The notes under the pieces are model-generated. The model did not search any database. It was not told the DNA's origin and saw nothing but the letters and a program-made list of their open reading frames with translations. A stretch of DNA of 32,000 bases from Candidatus Iainarchaeum sp. (GTDB taxonomy: Archaea; Iainarchaeota; Iainarchaeia; Iainarchaeales; JACQJH01): assembly GCA_016205145.1 (NCBI GenBank), contig JACQJH010000001.1, forward strand, positions 580,964 through 612,963, written 5' to 3'. Of this stretch, positions 12,229 to 32,000 are shown in pieces. Numbering within the stretch: the first letter of the stretch is position 1; every line of letters begins with the position of its first letter. Made by a program: the position numbers and the translations under genes.

Positions 12229-12256
12229 GATTTGCGGCGGGCGGAAAAAACACCGT

Positions 12257-14290
12257 TCAGGTTACCATTGTGGCCTCTGTTTTCCAGCCCAATTCAACCA
12301 GTTTTTCCACGTTTTTTCTGCCGGTTTCAGTGGAATTGTCGACCCATATTTCTATCTTGTCGCCGCGCGGGCACTGGCACGCCATGCAGACAATTGTTCC
12401 AGGCGGTGCCGGAATGTTTTTGTATGAAACAACCGGAATGCCGTGGACGATTGAATAATATTCCTTTAATATTTCTTCTTCTGTCGGCGCCCTGATGTAA
12501 ACTCTGTTCAGGTCAGCATGCCATTTCTCCCACGGGTTTTCGCCGCATTGGATCGGCGCGTATGTGAGGACGGTTGTCGAAACATTTTTTTCGCCGATCG
12601 TGAATTCATCGCTTTGGGCTGTTGAGCCGTTCCCTTCCCAAATTTTTTCATTGTCATAATAGGTTATTCGCGCCTTGAATGTTCCGGTTGCCATGGTCTG
12701 CACCGGCATGGGTTCGCCGTTGACCCATTCCTTTCCGTCCCATTCTATTTCCCTTGACTGGCCCGGCTTCAGTTCGTCCGCGCTTGGCGCGCATGCCGCC
12801 ATTATCAGGGGATTTGAAATCTGCACCGGCTTCCATTCCCCGTTTTCAAGGCGGATGATTGAAAGCGGCCCGCACAGCACTGTGCCGGGCTGGATGAAAA
12901 CGCTTTTGTCCGAATCATTTGTCGCGGTAATTTTCACGGTTTCGCCCGAGGAATAGCTTTGCCTGTCGGTCTTGGCTTCAACTTTTCCGTTTCCGGGTTG
13001 TTCGCGTATTTTGACCAGCACATACATTTGCCTGATTTCCTTTGTCGGCTTGACGCTGTATTCAGATGGAACCTGTTCGTCGTACCAGCTTTGCGGCAGC
13101 ACGTAACTCAGGCGCTGCCACGTCCCGGCATTTGTCGGATAAAACATGTTCTTGTACCAGGCATTCGCAAAAGCGTTCGCCTCGCTCTTGGTGAAGCCTT
13201 TGCTTGTCAGGTCGTTTTCAAGCAGCTTTGCGTCGGGCGTGAAATCCTTCAGTTCAAGCGCGACAGTTTGCCCGGCATCGATTTTTTCGGCTGTTGCGGC
13301 TTCGACATTCGTTTCCCAGAACCCGCCGCCGTTGCTTGCAACAAATCTTGCATTGTAAACGGCAAAATCGTTGCCGTTGGTGAGGCTTACCGAATTGCCG
13401 TTTCTCTTTGCCTTGACCCTGTTTTCGAATTGCATTTCTCCTTCGTAAAACAAAAATTTGTGCTTTTTCCCGTCGATCCACAGGTCATCCGAATCAACGT
13501 TTCCGAGTTGCGGTTCAATGGATTCGATCGGCGGGCGGTAACCCTTGCTTGTGGCAAGTGCCCTGGATGGTGTTTCCTGTTTCAGTGAAACACTGCTCCA
13601 GCCCGCGGTTTTGCCGTCTGCGGTTCCGCCGGGATAGACGTCCGTGACCTTTCCGCTTGGAAGGGTGTATTTCGCCGAAAATTTGTCAACATTTTTTGCA
13701 TGAAAGTAAACAATTGGAAGTTTTACCATTGCATCCACTTCGGGCCTGCTTGTCAGAATCGCATTTGATTCGTTTTCGTGGGCTTCTATTACGCCCCACT
13801 CGTGAGCCTCGAATTTGTAATCCGTGGGTGGCGGTTCATTGTCTGGAATTTTTCCCGGATATTTTTCGAAAACAACGGGTTTTGCTGTTTTTGGAATCTT
13901 GATTATGTGATATGGCTGCACGAATGCCTGCGTGCACATTGCACCCTCCGAAGGTTCCGGCTTGTCGACAAGCGCGTAAACGTTCGACTGGGTCTGGCGC
14001 ACATCCTTTATTTCAATTGTGTAACAGCCATTCGGTTTCGAACCGAGCGCTGCCGCAATGACAGTGTATTTGTCAAAATCCATTTCAGGCATCTCTGGCT
14101 GCGGCGAAACGTTCTGCTTCAATTCCGACCAAAAACCGGCGAAGGATTTGGCATCATTGAAGACAAGGTTTCTTGCAGCCTGGATTCCGGAATTCTGGCC
14201 TTTTTCAACGGTTTCAAAGCCGACTTTTTCAATGCAGCCTGCCAGAACAAGGATTGAAAGCAGTGCGAGCGCGGCCAGGATTTTTTTCAT
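12257..14290 (-). CDS. large secreted lipoprotein, function unknown (PrcB-like N-terminal region, BsuPI-like Ig region)
   Basis: [19 protein letters not shown] signal peptide with lipobox. ATG 14290 is preceded by GGTGG. The block [13 protein letters not shown] resembles the PrcB C-terminal motif. [18 protein letters not shown]...[13 protein letters not shown] resembles BsuPI-type inhibitor folds. The domain calls are from memory only. Confidence 0.75.
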
Positions 14291-22071: not shown

Positions 22072-22111
22072 GACGGACTTTCGTTTCATTGTTCGCATAA
22101 CAATTAACTCT

Positions 22112-25080
<2,969 letters not shown>

Positions 25081-25987: not shown

Positions 25988-27475
<1,488 letters not shown>

Positions 27476-27953: not shown

Positions 27954-28427
27954 ATGACTAATGCGGATAAAGGGTATAATTTAGTCAAAAAACTCGATAA
28001 TGGAAAAATTGCTTGTTATCAATTTGAATTTGAAGGAAAACCTATTGCGGCATATATAGGGGTTACAGTTGCAAGTGAAAACAAAATTGGTGGAGGCGGG
28101 AAAGTGGGCGCAAATCCTCTTGACCCTTCAATAAGTGCCCAAGCTATGAAAGAAAACAAAACAGAATACCAATGGGAAAAATATACGACTTCTGCATTTG
28201 CGGCAACCCACCCAGAAATCAGAAGTAAGGAAGTAAGATTGGAATTAGATAGGAAAGTTACTCAGATTTCAGGAGTTGCTGTAATGAATGCTCCGATTCA
28301 AGAACTCCCGCCTAACCAAGCTATAATTACGCCTTCGGGGGCGCTTTTGTCTACTTCTACAGGAACACTTCAAGCCAATACTGATTTTACCCTTGATAAA
28401 CTAAAAAAACATTTTACTAAATATTGA
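27954..28427 (+). CDS. hypothetical protein (157 aa)
   Basis: ATG 27954 is the first start inside the AT-rich DNA. The upstream 108 codons of the track ORF run through the G+C-rich rRNA leader and look non-coding. No family recognised. Confidence 0.6.
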   Translation: MTNADKGYNLVKKLDNGKIACYQFEFEGKPIAAYIGVTVASENKIGGGGKVGANPLDPSISAQAMKENKTEYQWEKYTTSAFAATHPEIRSKEVRLELDRKVTQISGVAVMNAPIQELPPNQAIITPSGALLSTSTGTLQANTDFTLDKLKKHFTKY

Positions 28428-28446: not shown

Positions 28447-28514
28447 TGCAGGAGACTGCAGGAGGAAGTCTTTTAAAGAGAAACACACACCTATAGTGCA
28501 GGAGAGTGCAGGAG
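28447..28514 (+). promoter_or_regulatory. four direct copies of TGCAGGAG in two pairs flanking a TATA-like box TTTTAAAG (28471-28478)
   Basis: Copies at 28447-54, 28457-64, 28497-504 and 28507-14. Spacing is 10 bp within each pair and 50 bp between pairs. The last copy also supplies an AGGAG ribosome-binding site 4 nt before ATG 28518. Confidence 0.7.
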
Positions 28515-28517
28515 ACA

Positions 28518-29429
28518 ATGTACCCAACTATACCTACTTTAGCCACATTACCAGAAGGCCTTAAACAAGCAGTGGCAGAAAATGACTTGCCATTAGAGGT
28601 AGCACTCCAATTAACCAAATTGAATAACCCGTTTGTAAACGAGAAAATGGTTCAAGTGATAAAAAGAAAAAAGAAATATGAAAGAGACCTTTTGAAAAAT
28701 GCTTTAGCTGCCGTTAAAAAAAGTAGCCAAATGAAAACCAAAATAAATGGATTAAAAAAAATAGTTGATTCAGGAATAACTCTCTCTTCGGTTTGGGATT
28801 TTGGTAACAGAGATAACTATGCAGGCGATGCAAATTTTTATGGAAATGCTCCAACCCAAGTCGTTGAACAGTGTATTCTGAGGCTTACTAAAGAAACTGA
28901 TTTCGTTGTAGACCCTATGGCTGGTTCTGGGACAACAATCGATGTATGTAAGGCATACAACCGAAAAGTCAAAGCGTTTGATTTAACTCCGACCAGAAAA
29001 GAAGTAGTCCAAAATGATAGTAGAAATATCCCTTTGAGAGATTTTTCTACAGATTTAGTTTTTCTTCATCCGCCTTATTGGGATATGGTGAAATACTCTA
29101 TAAAACAAAATGACATATCACGACTTCCTCTAAATAACTTTTTGGATAGTATGACCCAAATCATAAATGAATCTCAAAGAATTTTGAAAAAAGATAAATA
29201 TCTATGTATCTTGATAGGAGATATAGTAAGAAAAGGAAAATTTATTTCACTATCAAGAAAGTTATCAAACATTTGTGAGAACGCAGGATTAGAAGATGCT
29301 GGATACGCAATTAAGATTACAAAAGATTCTACCAGCCAAAGAAGAAGAGGAAAAGCTATATACGCAGAACTTGCGGCAACAAAAAATTTGAAGCAAAATC
29401 ACGATATAATTATGTTTTGGAAAAAATGA
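28518..29429 (+). CDS. SAM-dependent PPY-type amino-methyltransferase (probable DNA N6-A/N4-C methylase) with a ParB-HTH-like N-terminal segment
   Basis: Motif I FVVDPMAGSGTT lies about 52 aa before motif IV LVFLHPPYW, with acidic motif II/III residues between (KAFDL, QNDSRNIPL). The N-terminal LPEGLKQAVAENDLPLEVALQLTKL resembles the helix pair after the ParB HTH. The track start is GTG 28506; ATG 28518 is preferred. Confidence 0.8.
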   Translation: MYPTIPTLATLPEGLKQAVAENDLPLEVALQLTKLNNPFVNEKMVQVIKRKKKYERDLLKNALAAVKKSSQMKTKINGLKKIVDSGITLSSVWDFGNRDNYAGDANFYGNAPTQVVEQCILRLTKETDFVVDPMAGSGTTIDVCKAYNRKVKAFDLTPTRKEVVQNDSRNIPLRDFSTDLVFLHPPYWDMVKYSIKQNDISRLPLNNFLDSMTQIINESQRILKKDKYLCILIGDIVRKGKFISLSRKLSNICENAGLEDAGYAIKITKDSTSQRRRGKAIYAELAATKNLKQNHDIIMFWKK

Positions 29430-30143
29430 TTATTCTTTTGATATTTTTACCAATTCATTTTTTTGTTGTTCGGTTTTACTTTTTTCATATTCTTTTTTTC
29501 CATTCACAAATTCTTGAACTGCATTGTCAGGCAACGGGTGTACCCCTTTCCCATCAATTCGTGCCATTTTTATTTTTCCGCCTACGTCACCATCAATACT
29601 AATTGTTTCAACCATTGTTTTAGCAACTAAAAAACACATTTCATCTACTCCATAATTTTTATCATATTCTTTTGACAGGATATAACGTGCAATGAAGGGT
29701 TTGCCTTCAGCAACTGTATTATCCCCTCTTCCCGAGAAAAACAAATTTTCACTTCTTAAAACATAAATTTTTGGCATAACTTTAGTTTTTATTTTATCTA
29801 ACCCTGCGATAATTATTGTAACGCTTGGAAAACTTTTACTTCGTGGGTTTATAGTATCTGATATATGGGAAATTTCTTTTTTACAAAATCTTTTAAATTC
29901 AGAAACAACATCAGTTACATACCATTTTTTTGTTTTTGAATATTTATATTTAAAATCTTCTATTAACTGCATGGCTATCTCAGGGTCACCTGCAACTAGC
30001 GCACAAGAATAATCAGTCAATTGAATCATTTTTTGCGCAACTAAAGATTCCATTCTCGAACCGTCGTTATCTACCCACGTTCCTTTACTATCCGCAGCGA
30101 GAACTAAATAATCTTTTCCAGATACCGCAATAACAAGTGTCAT
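29430..30143 (-). CDS. stand-alone proteasome-beta/HslV-like Ntn peptidase
   Basis: Begins MTLVIAVSGKDYLVLAADSKGT. This places Thr directly after Met (Thr1) and Asp at mature position 17, with a QKMIQL lysine matching the Lys33 region. Overall length and block order resemble archaeal proteasome beta (my recollection of the Thermoplasma sequence). It has a K/E-rich C-terminal tail. Confidence 0.7.
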   Translation of the reverse strand: MTLVIAVSGKDYLVLAADSKGTWVDNDGSRMESLVAQKMIQLTDYSCALVAGDPEIAMQLIEDFKYKYSKTKKWYVTDVVSEFKRFCKKEISHISDTINPRSKSFPSVTIIIAGLDKIKTKVMPKIYVLRSENLFFSGRGDNTVAEGKPFIARYILSKEYDKNYGVDEMCFLVAKTMVETISIDGDVGGKIKMARIDGKGVHPLPDNAVQEFVNGKKEYEKSKTEQQKNELVKISKE

Positions 30144-30147
30144 ACTT

Positions 30148-30711
30148 TCACGTTTCCTTATTTACTCTTTGTGTCACAAGACTTGTTACAATTTGATTAA
30201 TAGTTTTATTTTGCTTTTTTGCTATTTTTTTTAATTTTTCAAATTGCTCATTTTCTAAGGAAACAACAACTAAGTTTAATGTGGCTTTTAGCTCCTTTGA
30301 CTTTTTTAATCGATTAATTTGATTTTCTATTGAGACCCCGCGATTATTTTTTGCAAACCTTATCATATCCCTTGCATCGTGTGCACTAAGCCCAACTATT
30401 GAGTTAGCAATTCTTATTTGGTCTTCTTTGTTTTTGATTGCTAACAGCCTCCAACCCAAGTCTTGAGTAATTTTATTTTCTTTTATTAATTGCTTTATCT
30501 CTGATGGCAAATCTAAAAGTTTTATAGTAGAACGAACCATTTCTCTGGACAATGAAAGCAACTTTGCAACTTTTCCATCAGACTTATATTTATCTTTAAG
30601 CTCCTTGAATTTTTCGGCTAAAAATATCCAGTCGTGGGTTTGTTTTCCTTTTGCCTTAAAATTAGAATATATGATGGCAAATATTTCATCTTCATCAACT
30701 TTTTTAGTCAT
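30148..30711 (-). CDS. ParB-HTH-only protein with a C-terminal ribbon-helix-helix-like segment
   Basis: KVAKLLSLSREMVRSTIKLLDLPSEIKQLIKENKITQDLGWRLLAI is a ParB HTH-domain pattern, and no ParB/Srx N-domain is present. The C-terminus LNLVVVSLENEQFEKLKKIAKKQNKTINQIVTSLV fits a beta-alpha-alpha (RHH) pattern. There is an ATGA overlap with the upstream gene. Confidence 0.7.
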   Translation of the reverse strand: MTKKVDEDEIFAIIYSNFKAKGKQTHDWIFLAEKFKELKDKYKSDGKVAKLLSLSREMVRSTIKLLDLPSEIKQLIKENKITQDLGWRLLAIKNKEDQIRIANSIVGLSAHDARDMIRFAKNNRGVSIENQINRLKKSKELKATLNLVVVSLENEQFEKLKKIAKKQNKTINQIVTSLVTQRVNKET

Positions 30712-31541
30712 TCTTCTTGTCCCCTAACGTAACCCTTGATTATTTCGGTGAGAAGGTCTTCTATGCCAATTTTATTTTTACTATTGTTTGCAATTCCTTG
30801 AATTTTATCGAAGTCAGACCTATCAACTAAAACAGTGAGTTTAATTTTTCTGGAAGGTTTTTTTGCCTCGGCTAATATTTCTTCAATAGATGCATCTTTA
30901 TTTTCCATACCCACATCTAGTATATTATCCCATTCTGGTTTTGTCATTCCTATCATATGTCTTGCAATTTTCACGATTTTTTCCGATTTTGGCCAAAAAG
31001 CAGTAGTTAATTTATAGGCTTGTTTCGGGTCAAGTTTTTTTTCAGCTACCATGTCTCTTACTTCTTTTGGTATGATTCGGTAAGAGAGATATTTAGTAAC
31101 TGTTTGAAGAGATAAACCAACATCCGCAGCTACTTGTTCTAATCTCTTTGATTGCGTCCCCGTATACTTACTAAATAATTCATCACATACTCTAATAGTG
31201 TCATTATACGGCAGTTTTGTTCTATTGACATTTTCAGAGAATGAAATAATTCTTTTTGTTAACTCATTAACATTATTGATTAATATTGCTGGAATTTCTT
31301 CTCGTTTTAATTCTTCGAATGCCCTAAATCTTCTTTGCCCTACAAGAACTTTGAATTTTTTATTTCCTTTTCCTTCGGTTAAAAGTATGGGGTGGATAAG
31401 TCCGACATTTTCTATACTCGCTTTTAGCACATCTAGATTATTTTTTCTACCTTCAGTTCTAACATTTAAAGTGTCAACTTCAATATCGTTAATGTTTGCT
31501 TCAAAATATTTTCTATCTTTTATATAGTCAAGTGTAGCCAT
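30708..31541 (-). CDS. ParB/Srx-domain protein with HTH and a C-terminal ribbon-helix-helix-like segment
   Basis: The ParB N-domain shows the arginine patch VLVGQRRFRAFEEL (GxRRxRA type) and IHPILL. The HTH is QVAADVGLSLQTVTKYLSYRIIPKEVRDMVAEKKL. The C-terminus is KLTVLVDRSDFDKIQGIANNSKNKIGIEDLLTEIIKGYV. ATG 31541 is preceded by AGGTGA. The track start at 31568 is less likely. Confidence 0.8.
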   Translation of the reverse strand: MATLDYIKDRKYFEANINDIEVDTLNVRTEGRKNNLDVLKASIENVGLIHPILLTEGKGNKKFKVLVGQRRFRAFEELKREEIPAILINNVNELTKRIISFSENVNRTKLPYNDTIRVCDELFSKYTGTQSKRLEQVAADVGLSLQTVTKYLSYRIIPKEVRDMVAEKKLDPKQAYKLTTAFWPKSEKIVKIARHMIGMTKPEWDNILDVGMENKDASIEEILAEAKKPSRKIKLTVLVDRSDFDKIQGIANNSKNKIGIEDLLTEIIKGYVRGQEE

Positions 31542-31549
31542 ATAGTCAC

Positions 31550-31846
31550 CTAGTGGGTGGCATTCCAATTATCTCGTAAATTTTTCCATTCTTCAATAGT
31601 TATTTCTTTTCTGCCTAATTTACTATTTATCTCAGAAATAAAATCGCCATAGTCTTTAACTTTTTTATCTTTTTGTTCAGCCTTTTCCACTTCCGAACTT
31701 AACTGTTCAATATCTTTGATGTCGTGATTTATCGAAAAGTGTTTCAGGATATCCTTAAATTCGCATTTACAAATTGGGCAAAAATTATTTGTCAATCTAC
31801 CACCTTGTTTTTTGTCTTTTTGAAACCCCTTTGACTTAAAGCCCAC
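31550..31846 (-). CDS. small C2H2-type zinc-finger protein
   Basis: CPICKCEFKDILKHFSINH gives the pattern C-x2-C-x9-H-x4-H. The maximal ORF starts at GTG 31846. The more likely start is TTG 31795, which overlaps the TGA stop of the upstream 50-aa ORF (TTGA) and follows AAGGTGG. Confidence 0.6.
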   Translation of the reverse strand: MGFKSKGFQKDKKQGGRLTNNFCPICKCEFKDILKHFSINHDIKDIEQLSSEVEKAEQKDKKVKDYGDFISEINSKLGRKEITIEEWKNLRDNWNATH

Positions 31847-31944
31847 TTAAAAAGCTTGGTTGGGCTTATTTGATTATTTTCAAGAAACTTCTTTTCATCG
31901 TTAGTTAAGGAAACGGAAACCCATTTAATTCCAGAATTAGCCAT
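31792..31944 (-). CDS. 50-aa ribbon-helix-helix-like protein (below the ORF-track size cut-off)
   Basis: Hand translation gives MANSGIKWVSVSLTNDEKKFLENNQISPTKLFKWALSQRGFKKTKNKVVD. The beta strand (KWVSVSL) followed by two helices fits an RHH pattern. It is the first gene of the operon and sits downstream of an AT-rich, TATA-rich region (31945-32000). Confidence 0.5.
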   Translation of the reverse strand: MANSGIKWVSVSLTNDEKKFLENNQISPTKLFKWALSQRGFKKTKNKVVD

Positions 31945-32000
31945 ATATGCCAAATTATATAAGTTATACAATAACTTTAAAAGCTTATTATATTATATAA

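Follow-up and report, generated by a model that had tools for sequence, protein, structure and literature searches.

Here, we describe two ParB-like proteins encoded within a 32,000-nt stretch of the genome of Candidatus Iainarchaeum sp. (assembly GCA_016205145.1, contig JACQJH010000001.1, forward-strand positions 580,964 to 612,963). This whole stretch is referred to as the window, and all positions are counted from its first letter. Profile comparisons and structure models support that both proteins, with lengths of 277 and 187 amino acids (aa), end in a ribbon-helix-helix-type (RHH-type) domain of the MetJ/Arc/CopG superfamily instead of the canonical ParB C-terminal domain. We consider it fairly probable that these two RHH-tailed paralogs, one complete and one truncated, work as an RHH-held clamp and a site-specific partner that regulate a neighbouring DNA methyltransferase gene, and not in partition. 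The respective features are as follows.

30708-31541, minus strand: gene of the 277-aa ParB; ATGA overlap with the start of the 187-aa gene
31008-31076, minus strand: LP motif of ParB, IIPKEVRDMVAEKKLDPKQAYKL (residues 156-178); aligns with Noc LKLPQEVQEALLQRAITERHARAL
30717-30851, minus strand: predicted RHH-type C-terminal domain of ParB (residues 231-275); assigned by homology to the 187-aa tail and by a joint profile
30148-30711, minus strand: gene of the 187-aa protein; 4-nt gap to a proteasome-like gene
30445-30513, minus strand: LP motif of the 187-aa protein (residues 67-89); aligns with Spo0J LTLPENIQQLIAEGTLSMGHGRTLLGL and H. pylori ParB
30157-30282, minus strand: predicted RHH-type C-terminal domain of the 187-aa protein (residues 144-185); assigned by Pfam RHH_4 and RHH proteins of the PDB

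A complete ParB and its truncated paralog

The 277-aa protein is composed of a ParB_N domain of the CTP hydrolase (CTPase) type, a ParB helix-turn-helix (HTH) domain, a helical linker and the RHH-type tail. Pfam reports ParB_N with 48.6 bits (cut-off 26.3; E-value 8.8e-13) and HTH_ParB with 21.2 bits, i.e., slightly under the respective cut-off of 22.6. Residues 27-197 align with PDB structures of Noc, ParB, Spo0J and KorB (best E-value 6e-12), where the Noc alignment spans the HTH as well as the helix with the LP motif, up to residue 197. GQRRFRA (68-74) corresponds to Box II (GxxRxxA) and ENVNR (103-107) to Box III (ENxxR). Among 22 homologs, G68, Q69, R70, R71, E103, N104 and R107 are invariant. 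On the basis of these alignments, we classify the protein as a complete ParB-type protein with intact Box II and Box III motifs. Its monomer model from AlphaFold2 (AF2) has a mean predicted local distance difference test score (pLDDT) of 83.9. A canonical ParB C-terminal dimerisation domain is absent, i.e., the last 50 residues give only RHH-type Pfam signals at E-values up to 10. The ParA-interaction motif LG(R/K)GL was not found by inspection of the N-terminus.

For the 187-aa protein, Pfam reports HTH_ParB (E-value 2.2e-11) and no ParB_N. Comparison with the ParB family by hhalign results in a probability of 98.1% (E-value 1.3e-13, 163 aligned columns), such that residues 17-186 correspond to ParB residues 104-275. 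The respective AF2 monomer has a mean pLDDT of 85.9 and finds ParB/Noc DNA-binding domains as its best Foldseek matches in the PDB. These HTH matches dominate the Foldseek result and leave it uninformative with regard to the tail. Judged by the alignment, the 187-aa protein is a paralogous ParB copy from Box III to the end, which kept HTH, linker and tail and lost Box I and Box II with the nucleotide-binding motifs. As read from the same comparison, its origin is a gene duplication with truncation and not a shuffling of motifs.

This bears on the LP motif, which the original prediction had noted in three proteins (the two ParB-like proteins and the methyltransferase) and attributed to modular duplication. 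Within both ParB-like proteins, the motif matches residue for residue the conserved helix after the HTH of Spo0J, H. pylori ParB and Noc. By this correspondence, the motif is the canonical post-HTH helix of ParB, Noc and Spo0J, which characterises the HTH domain of ParB proteins. The similarity of the two copies is far above chance because they represent this conserved helix. Since the paralogy of the 187-aa protein covers ParB from residue 104 through the C-terminus, LP motif and RHH tail were inherited together. Whole-segment paralogy explains both copies, and to call this modular duplication is incorrect.

The C-terminal tails

The original prediction had furthermore proposed three RHH modules in the operon, namely the tails of both ParB-like proteins and the 50-aa product of its first gene. 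This holds for the two tails and not for the 50-aa protein, which is treated further below. Comparison by hhalign shows homology between the two tail families (probability 96.6%, E-value 6e-10), and RHH families are the only recurrent Pfam matches for the tails of both proteins.

The tail of the 187-aa protein (residues 150-182) matches Pfam RHH_4 with E-values of 7e-5 to 2e-4, i.e., 22-23 bits compared to a cut-off of 25 bits. Among 17 homologous tails of this type, matches to RHH_4 (8), RHH_7 (8), RHH_1 (4), ParG (3) and VapB antitoxin (3) are observed. The respective profile retrieves HP0222, AvtR, ParG, EndoAI and E73 from the PDB, all of them RHH proteins, with E-values of 0.03-6. In terms of such profile scores, the match to RHH is marginal for each single family and consistent overall.

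For the tail of the window's ParB alone, no Pfam RHH match was found. Among the tails of its 22 homologs, two match RHH_1 (7e-4) and two RHH_4, while ParG is also matched by a few. When compared to known structures, the profile of the ParB tail family retrieves ORF56 of pRN1 (E-value 0.11) and ParG (0.2). The joint profile of 34 tails finds AvtR with an E-value of 7.9e-5, followed by ParG (0.01) and then by a chain labelled as anti-CRISPR (9wa8), HP0222, ORF56, EndoAI, CopG and Arc. The match list beyond AvtR is dominated by RHH proteins. The RHH assignment of the ParB tail is thus a predicted one that is supported mainly via homology to the 187-aa tail and via this joint profile.

With regard to structure, RHH profile matches to the tails consistently start at the strand position. 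The AF2 monomer of ParB shows coil for residues 227-240 and helices for 241-252 and 260-276. For the 187-aa protein, an extended or coil segment (143-153) precedes helices at 154-166 and 171-186, with pLDDT of 91-93 over the blocks of 151-170, which cover most of the first helix. This monomer has the strand-helix-helix topology, with the strand left unpaired as a single chain was modelled. The segments before the first helix are conserved and alternate between hydrophobic and polar residues as in an RHH strand; within the ParB family, the outward-facing positions of this strand are basic or polar. Profile searches with the isolated tails, as well as the models' extended segment followed by two helices, are therefore in line with what had been proposed for the two C-termini. 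Standard domain annotation misses the tails because the respective matches fall just under threshold.

Operon layout and recurrence of the cassette

The window is a piece of an archaeal chromosome. Rfam places an archaeal 23S rRNA (22111-25080), a tRNA-Ala, a 16S rRNA (25989-27474) and an RNase P RNA on its minus strand, and large open reading frames (ORFs) of its left part encode leucyl-, alanyl- and arginyl-tRNA synthetases. GC content is about 51% over positions 1-27900 and falls to 31-39% from about 27.9 kb to the window end at 32000. The drop sits just upstream of the rRNA operon, and the far end of the low-GC island is cut by the window end. The ParB-like genes are located inside this island. 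Direct reading of the sequence shows its minus-strand genes to form a single tightly packed operon, and all peptides quoted in the original prediction are present in the window. The features around the two ParB-like genes are listed below.

31945-32000, minus strand: AT-rich region upstream of the 50-aa ORF with TATA-like boxes; cut by the window end, conserved in metagenome contig L010
31792-31944, minus strand: 50-aa ORF (orf50); its TGA stop overlaps a TTG, the possible start of the next gene (TTGA)
31550-31846 at maximum, probably 31550-31795, minus strand: zinc-finger-like ORF; 8-nt gap to the ParB gene
29430-30143, minus strand: gene of the 237-aa proteasome-like protein, at the end of the operon; zero gap between its stop and that of the methyltransferase
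28506-29429, plus strand: N6/N4 DNA methyltransferase of 307 aa; converges on the operon
28545-28613, plus strand: N-terminal hairpin of the LP type in the methyltransferase (residues 14-36); aligns in register with the LP helix
28447, 28457, 28497 and 28507 (span 28447-28514), plus strand: two tandem TGCAGGAG pairs that flank a TTTAAA TATA-like box

The gene order zinc-finger protein, ParB, truncated ParB, proteasome-like protein and convergent methyltransferase recurs, and we refer to it as the cassette. Further cassette loci are found in DPANN archaea, namely in an Aenigmatarchaeota metagenome-assembled genome (MAG; L001/L018) and a Micrarchaeota MAG (L004/L017), as well as in the metagenome contigs L008 and L010. 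Their housekeeping flanks differ, and transposase or integrase genes are located within a few kb of the cassette in L004, L008 and L010. The cassettes have a GC content of 28-35% vs. 37-51% for the flanks. In L001, L008, L010 and the window, the cassette has less GC than either flank; in L004, it equals the left flank. Because GC is below both flanks in three of the four other loci and in the window, a horizontal transfer of the cassette is suggested.

A scan with the ParB profile also identified two 38.5-kb viral contigs in IMG/VR that carry distant versions of the first four genes (22-35% identity); the respective scan with the 187-aa profile gave no match. Here, a gene similar to 3'-phosphoadenosine-5'-phosphosulfate (PAPS) reductases replaces the methyltransferase. 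In the viral locus L019 (8614-12896, GC 52.6%), this gene comes after the proteasome-like gene, and a 65-aa RHH-looking ORF with a DUF6290 match (E-value 4e-4) is found about 0.9 kb upstream. No ATPase of the ParA/Walker (ParA/CbiA) type was found in any locus, considering flanks of up to 10 kb where the contig allows. A PADLOC scan of all cassette proteins returned generic type II methyltransferase models only and no defence-system match.

The zinc-finger-like protein of about 81 aa shows a CxxC-x9-H-x4-H pattern followed by a long helix, and has a weak Pfam zf-Di19 match (E-value 0.028). Its homologs precede the ParB gene in L001, L004, L008, L010 and the viral L019. Those of L001 and L019 (83 and 80 aa) begin just before the CPIC motif. 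Given these homologs, the product is probably the 81-aa form that starts from TTG at 31795 rather than the maximal 98-aa form. We also considered whether orf50 and the 98-aa ORF, which overlap by 55 nt including an A-run, represent one frameshifted gene, and rejected this since L010 keeps the same two-frame layout. It is further disfavoured by the starts before CPIC in other loci and by the TTGA overlap start, which gives a homolog-sized product of 81 aa. RNA folding of the overlap showed no structure (z = +1.9).

The 237-aa protein is a proteasome beta-like N-terminal nucleophile (Ntn) hydrolase (Pfam Proteasome, E-value 2.7e-10; archaeal proteasome beta subunit 3h4p, 9e-4) and is conserved across all cassette loci including the viral L019. 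As it begins with MT, the Thr would be N-terminal without a propeptide. Asp18 and Lys38 align with the catalytic positions Asp17 and Lys33. The convergent stop codons of its gene and of the methyltransferase abut at 29427-29432, and the respective gap is 0-6 nt in all other loci. The two transcripts may overlap because this arrangement leaves no room for terminators. Between the 16S promoter region and the methyltransferase, a 157-aa ORF of intermediate GC is found (27954-28427, plus strand), for which neither a Pfam match nor a counterpart in the other loci was obtained.

The 50-aa open reading frame

The first gene of the operon encodes a small basic protein of 50 aa. Compared to its counterpart in L010, most differences are synonymous third-position changes while 77% of the amino acids are identical, and because of this pattern we regard orf50 as a genuine coding sequence. 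An exhaustive search found 7 representatives of 45-122 aa as relatives.

As stated above, this protein had been proposed as the third RHH module, for which no signal was obtained. RHH families of Pfam match 0/8 members of the orf50 family, no RHH protein is among the PDB matches of this family, and hhalign comparisons with the RHH tail profiles yield probabilities of 2.9%, 0.7% and 4.1%. The putative first helix would be about 4 residues shorter than the first helix of the tails.

Only two of six distinct cassette loci, i.e., the window and L010, contain orf50; it is absent in L001, L004, L008 and the viral contigs. Every relative that could be placed is divergent to a DDE transposase (L010 5483-6910, L014 120-1492, L015 181-1558, L016 208-1585). 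These transposases belong to two families, namely DDE_Tnp_1 and the IS240 type, and no ParB is located near the relatives in L014-L016. In L010, the transposase begins less than 100 nt further upstream of the AT-rich region that matches 31945-32000, on the other strand. A transposase may be located just beyond the window end. Overall, orf50 is best regarded as an accessory gene tied to mobile DNA that happens to be co-transcribed with the operon in the window.

The methyltransferase and its N-terminal hairpin

The convergent gene encodes a methyltransferase with N6_N4_Mtase as its sole Pfam match (E-value 8e-20); neither ParB_N nor HTH_ParB is detected by Pfam in the 307-aa protein. Its probable start is the ATG at 28518. 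The gene is conserved and convergent in L001, L004, L008 and L010. Motif I (DPMAGSGTT, residue 136) precedes motif IV (HPPY, residue 188), i.e., in a permuted order when compared to the N6_N4_Mtase model of Pfam. Among the distant relatives, some carry an annotation as TRM11-family enzymes.

The third copy of the LP motif is part of a hairpin in this protein and is located outside the span 30148-31944 to which the original prediction had assigned all three copies. The pattern LPxGLKQAVxExDLPLxVAxxL is kept in 45/45 aligned methyltransferase homologs. A hairpin profile from 5 sequences is only weakly similar to the 187-aa family (hhalign probability 25%), while the profile from 45 sequences reaches 67% (P 5e-5) over 51 columns in LP-helix register. 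In a column-shuffle control, 0/120 comparisons reach the observed score (maximum 27.1 vs. 32.9). The similarity to the ParB family is low (9%). Thus, the motif's presence in the methyltransferase stands at moderate similarity only, in contrast to its two copies in the ParB-like proteins.

Among close relatives, six with 41-57% identity to the methyltransferase are fusions of ParB_N, HTH_ParB and methyltransferase, which occur in unrelated gene contexts. When aligned to these six, the hairpin of the window matches the segment after their complete HTH_ParB domain, and the window protein starts past HTH_ParB. Since the hairpin is family-wide (45/45) and placed after HTH_ParB in the fusion relatives, it is not a recent copy from within the operon. 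Judged from these alignments, it is an old element of the methyltransferase family, possibly an ancient repeat of the LP hairpin, so that modular duplication does not account for the third copy either. A recent fission of a fusion gene into the methyltransferase and the 277-aa ParB was considered and rejected, given that the ParB parts are only about 26-29% identical vs. 49-57% for the methyltransferase parts. One of the fusion loci (L011 826-3560) lacks the cassette genes, and its fusion gene has an overlap with the end of the gene upstream, for which a faint LAGLIDADG match is seen.

A candidate operator

The TGCAGGAG sequence occurs 6 times in the window, with 4 copies at the methyltransferase promoter, compared to a chance expectation of 0.85 for the whole window. 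The copies of each pair are spaced by 10 bp, and the second pair reaches up to the start of the methyltransferase (ATG at 28518). L004, L008 and L010 show a matching layout of two pairs around a TATA-like box with a spacing of 9-10 bp. Tandem direct repeats of one turn are the type of site that is bound cooperatively by RHH dimers, e.g., of Arc, MetJ, omega and ParG. Given position and conservation, the TGCAGGAG pairs are probably the methyltransferase operator. Repeat-type sites for RHH dimers are also covered in PMC10853773. When the cassette was searched for palindromes resembling parS, nothing convincing was found. The TGCAGGAG pairs are the only conserved repeats. In L001, the one locus without these boxes, a 61-aa ORF (12238-12423, minus strand; KITIVFDEEDTKKFLEISNRFGWTDKRIITIALRNFYEKF) precedes the methyltransferase; it shows a clear strand-helix-helix (RHH-like) pattern and has no Pfam match.

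Proposed function and alternatives

ParB-fold proteins are nucleotide-gated DNA clamps, and such a clamp needs a permanent dimer contact at the C-terminus. RHH domains are obligate intertwined dimers. For this reason, the RHH tail most likely provides the permanent contact that is normally given by the ParB C-terminal domain, while its beta-ribbon would add a second DNA-reading surface. The full ParB would act as the nucleotide-gated DNA clamp. Its truncated paralog, presumably made by translational coupling via the ATGA overlap, would act as a plain site-specific binder. As best candidate target we propose the tandem TGCAGGAG pairs that lie on both sides of the TATA box at the convergent methyltransferase gene. 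The ParB pair would thereby regulate a DNA-modification gene on a mobile low-GC cassette and not form a chromosome-partition system.

Several points weigh against this reading. The tail of the window's ParB has no single significant RHH match, such that its assignment leans on the joint profile and on its homologous counterpart in the 187-aa protein, for which the RHH_4 score is itself under the curated cut-off (23 vs. 25 bits). The AF2 models are monomeric, i.e., the beta-ribbon is not formed, and pLDDT is lower (64-78) in the strand segment. Furthermore, L001 has the ParB-like proteins but no TGCAGGAG repeats. Finally, we purely infer the tie of the ParB-like proteins to TGCAGGAG; a different factor could bind these repeats, or the methyltransferase itself could target them.

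Another account of the tails takes them as generic amphipathic two-helix dimerisation elements, for which the RHH matches are composition artefacts of short lysine- and glutamate-rich helices. It can draw on the fact that all single-family matches are under curated thresholds and that DSSP gives no strand in the monomer models. Against it stand matches that begin at the RHH strand position and are spread over numerous independent RHH families and RHH proteins of solved structure, with hardly anything else among them, a joint-profile E-value of 7.9e-5, and the conserved hydrophobic/polar alternation before the first helix. We thus hold this account to be very improbable. Scarcely better placed is the view that homo- and heterodimers connect three RHH modules (both tails and the 50-aa protein) into a network, with the helix motif spread within the operon by modular duplication. 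The homology of the two tails as RHH-type domains, the tight coupling of the operon via overlapping stop and start codons and the strand-helix-helix appearance of the 50-aa protein by eye, which hhalign aligns in RHH register without significance, speak for it. However, the 50-aa family lacks an RHH signal in Pfam, PDB and profile-profile comparison, and its first helix would be about 4 residues short relative to the tails. The ORF is absent from 4/6 distinct cassette loci and found elsewhere beside transposases without ParB. In addition, shared motif and tail trace back to one whole-gene duplication, while the methyltransferase hairpin is ancestral to its family. We consider such a network quite unlikely. 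Hetero-pairing via the RHH domains is conceivable. In a more specific form, the tails would join the full ParB with the CTPase-less paralog, either in mixed dimers or in a tetramer that occupies the tandem repeats, and the resulting asymmetric clamp with one gate would control the DNA-modification enzyme; this seems unlikely to us. If true, such an asymmetric clamp would operate along with a proteasome-like hydrolase and a zinc-finger protein on a mobile element of DPANN archaea and viruses. It would also mean a ParA-independent use of the ParB switch, with both classical centromere-binder folds in one polypeptide.

The remaining alternative retains the classical role of ParB, i.e., an integrated plasmid or virus would use the cassette as a module for its partition or maintenance. 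Here, a centromere would be the starting point for the spreading of ParB, the gene of the motor ATPase would be located elsewhere or lost, and the truncated paralog would serve as adaptor or centromere binder, comparable to AspA with the ParB of pNOB8 or to KorA with KorB. The intact ParB motifs, the low-GC islands adjoining transposases and integrases and the presence of the cassette on the 38.5-kb IMG/VR contigs fit this picture, and RHH proteins are known as centromere binders (PMC7022226). On the other hand, no ParA/Walker ATPase is encoded within flanks of up to 10 kb at any locus, and the ParB N-terminus is without the LG(R/K)GL motif. Moreover, the constant partners are a proteasome-like hydrolase and a DNA-modification enzyme (methyltransferase, or PAPS-reductase-like in the viral contigs). 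A recent survey also finds archaeal ParB-HTH proteins rarely with ParA and considers a role in segregation unlikely (bioRxiv 10.1101/2025.10.10.680097). We therefore see little chance that the cassette is a partition module.

If, as we favour, an RHH-held clamp and a truncated partner regulate the methyltransferase, the replacement of the ParB C-terminal contact by an RHH domain would provide the clamp with a second surface for sequence reading. An RHH-tailed ParB would merge two classes that textbooks give as alternatives for centromere binding. The conserved pair of full and truncated ParB constitutes a natural experiment on a clamp with one partner that lacks the nucleotide gate. The conserved neighbours and the occurrence in DPANN archaea and IMG/VR contigs point to an uncharacterised function of mobile elements.

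Comparison with known systems

The original prediction had called a ParB with an RHH tail atypical, which agrees with the literature. B-components of partition systems use HTH (ParB family), RHH or winged HTH domains as alternatives (PMC7022226). A survey of ParB-fold fusions from 2025 lists HTH, the canonical C-terminal domain, methyltransferases, CBS and others, while RHH is never mentioned (bioRxiv 10.1101/2025.10.10.680097). All literature found on ParB, CTPase and ribbon-helix-helix together treats the two classes separately. Within the literature searched, a ParB-fold protein with an RHH tail is thus undescribed, though it is a modest variation on known DNA-binding proteins.

Like chromosomal ParB/Spo0J and Noc, the 277-aa protein has ParB_N with Box II and Box III as well as an HTH with LP helix (PDB E-value 6e-12). 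It differs in the RHH-type tail that replaces the C-terminal dimerisation domain, the lack of a ParA partner and of the ParA-interaction motif, the truncated paralog alongside, and the location in a low-GC island of an archaeal (DPANN) host. The lack of an adjacent ParA gene and of LG(R/K)GL likewise sets the cassette apart from ParABS partition systems. For archaeal ParB-HTH proteins in general, an association with ParA is described as rare and a part in segregation as unlikely (bioRxiv 10.1101/2025.10.10.680097).

The tails match the RHH binders ParG (TP228), omega (pSM19035), archaeal SegB, AvtR, ORF56 (pRN1) and CopG in profile searches. Tandem repeats bound by such proteins are comparable to the TGCAGGAG pairs, for which the binder is our assignment by inference. 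Known RHH binders, however, are small proteins that stand alone or carry a flexible tail, whereas the RHH domain here would form the C-terminus of a ParB-fold/ParB-HTH protein.

The combination of a ParB-family clamp with a smaller DNA-binding protein encoded nearby resembles KorB-KorA of plasmid RK2, and KorB is among the structural matches. The C-terminal domain of KorB is SH3-like. Unlike KorA, which is an unrelated HTH repressor, the second protein of the cassette is a truncated ParB paralog.

ParB_N-N6/N4 methyltransferase fusions of phages and plasmids are represented by the six relatives that are 41-57% identical to the cassette methyltransferase. ParB-methyltransferase fusions are common in phages (bioRxiv 10.1101/2025.10.10.680097). 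In contrast to them, the methyltransferase of the window is without ParB_N and HTH and kept only the post-HTH hairpin, while the ParB genes are separate and located on the opposite strand, and their products share only about 26-29% identity with the ParB portion of the fusion proteins.

IbrB/IbrA is a known pairing of a ParB-like protein with a DNA-modification enzyme. The same arrangement is found for DndB/DndC, where DndB is the ParB-superfamily protein (PMC10853773). The cassette shares with both systems the location of a ParB-superfamily protein beside a DNA-modification enzyme, and its viral version has the PAPS-reductase-like gene in this place. The likeness drawn here is one of gene pairing, to which the cassette adds a proteasome-like hydrolase and a zinc-finger protein.

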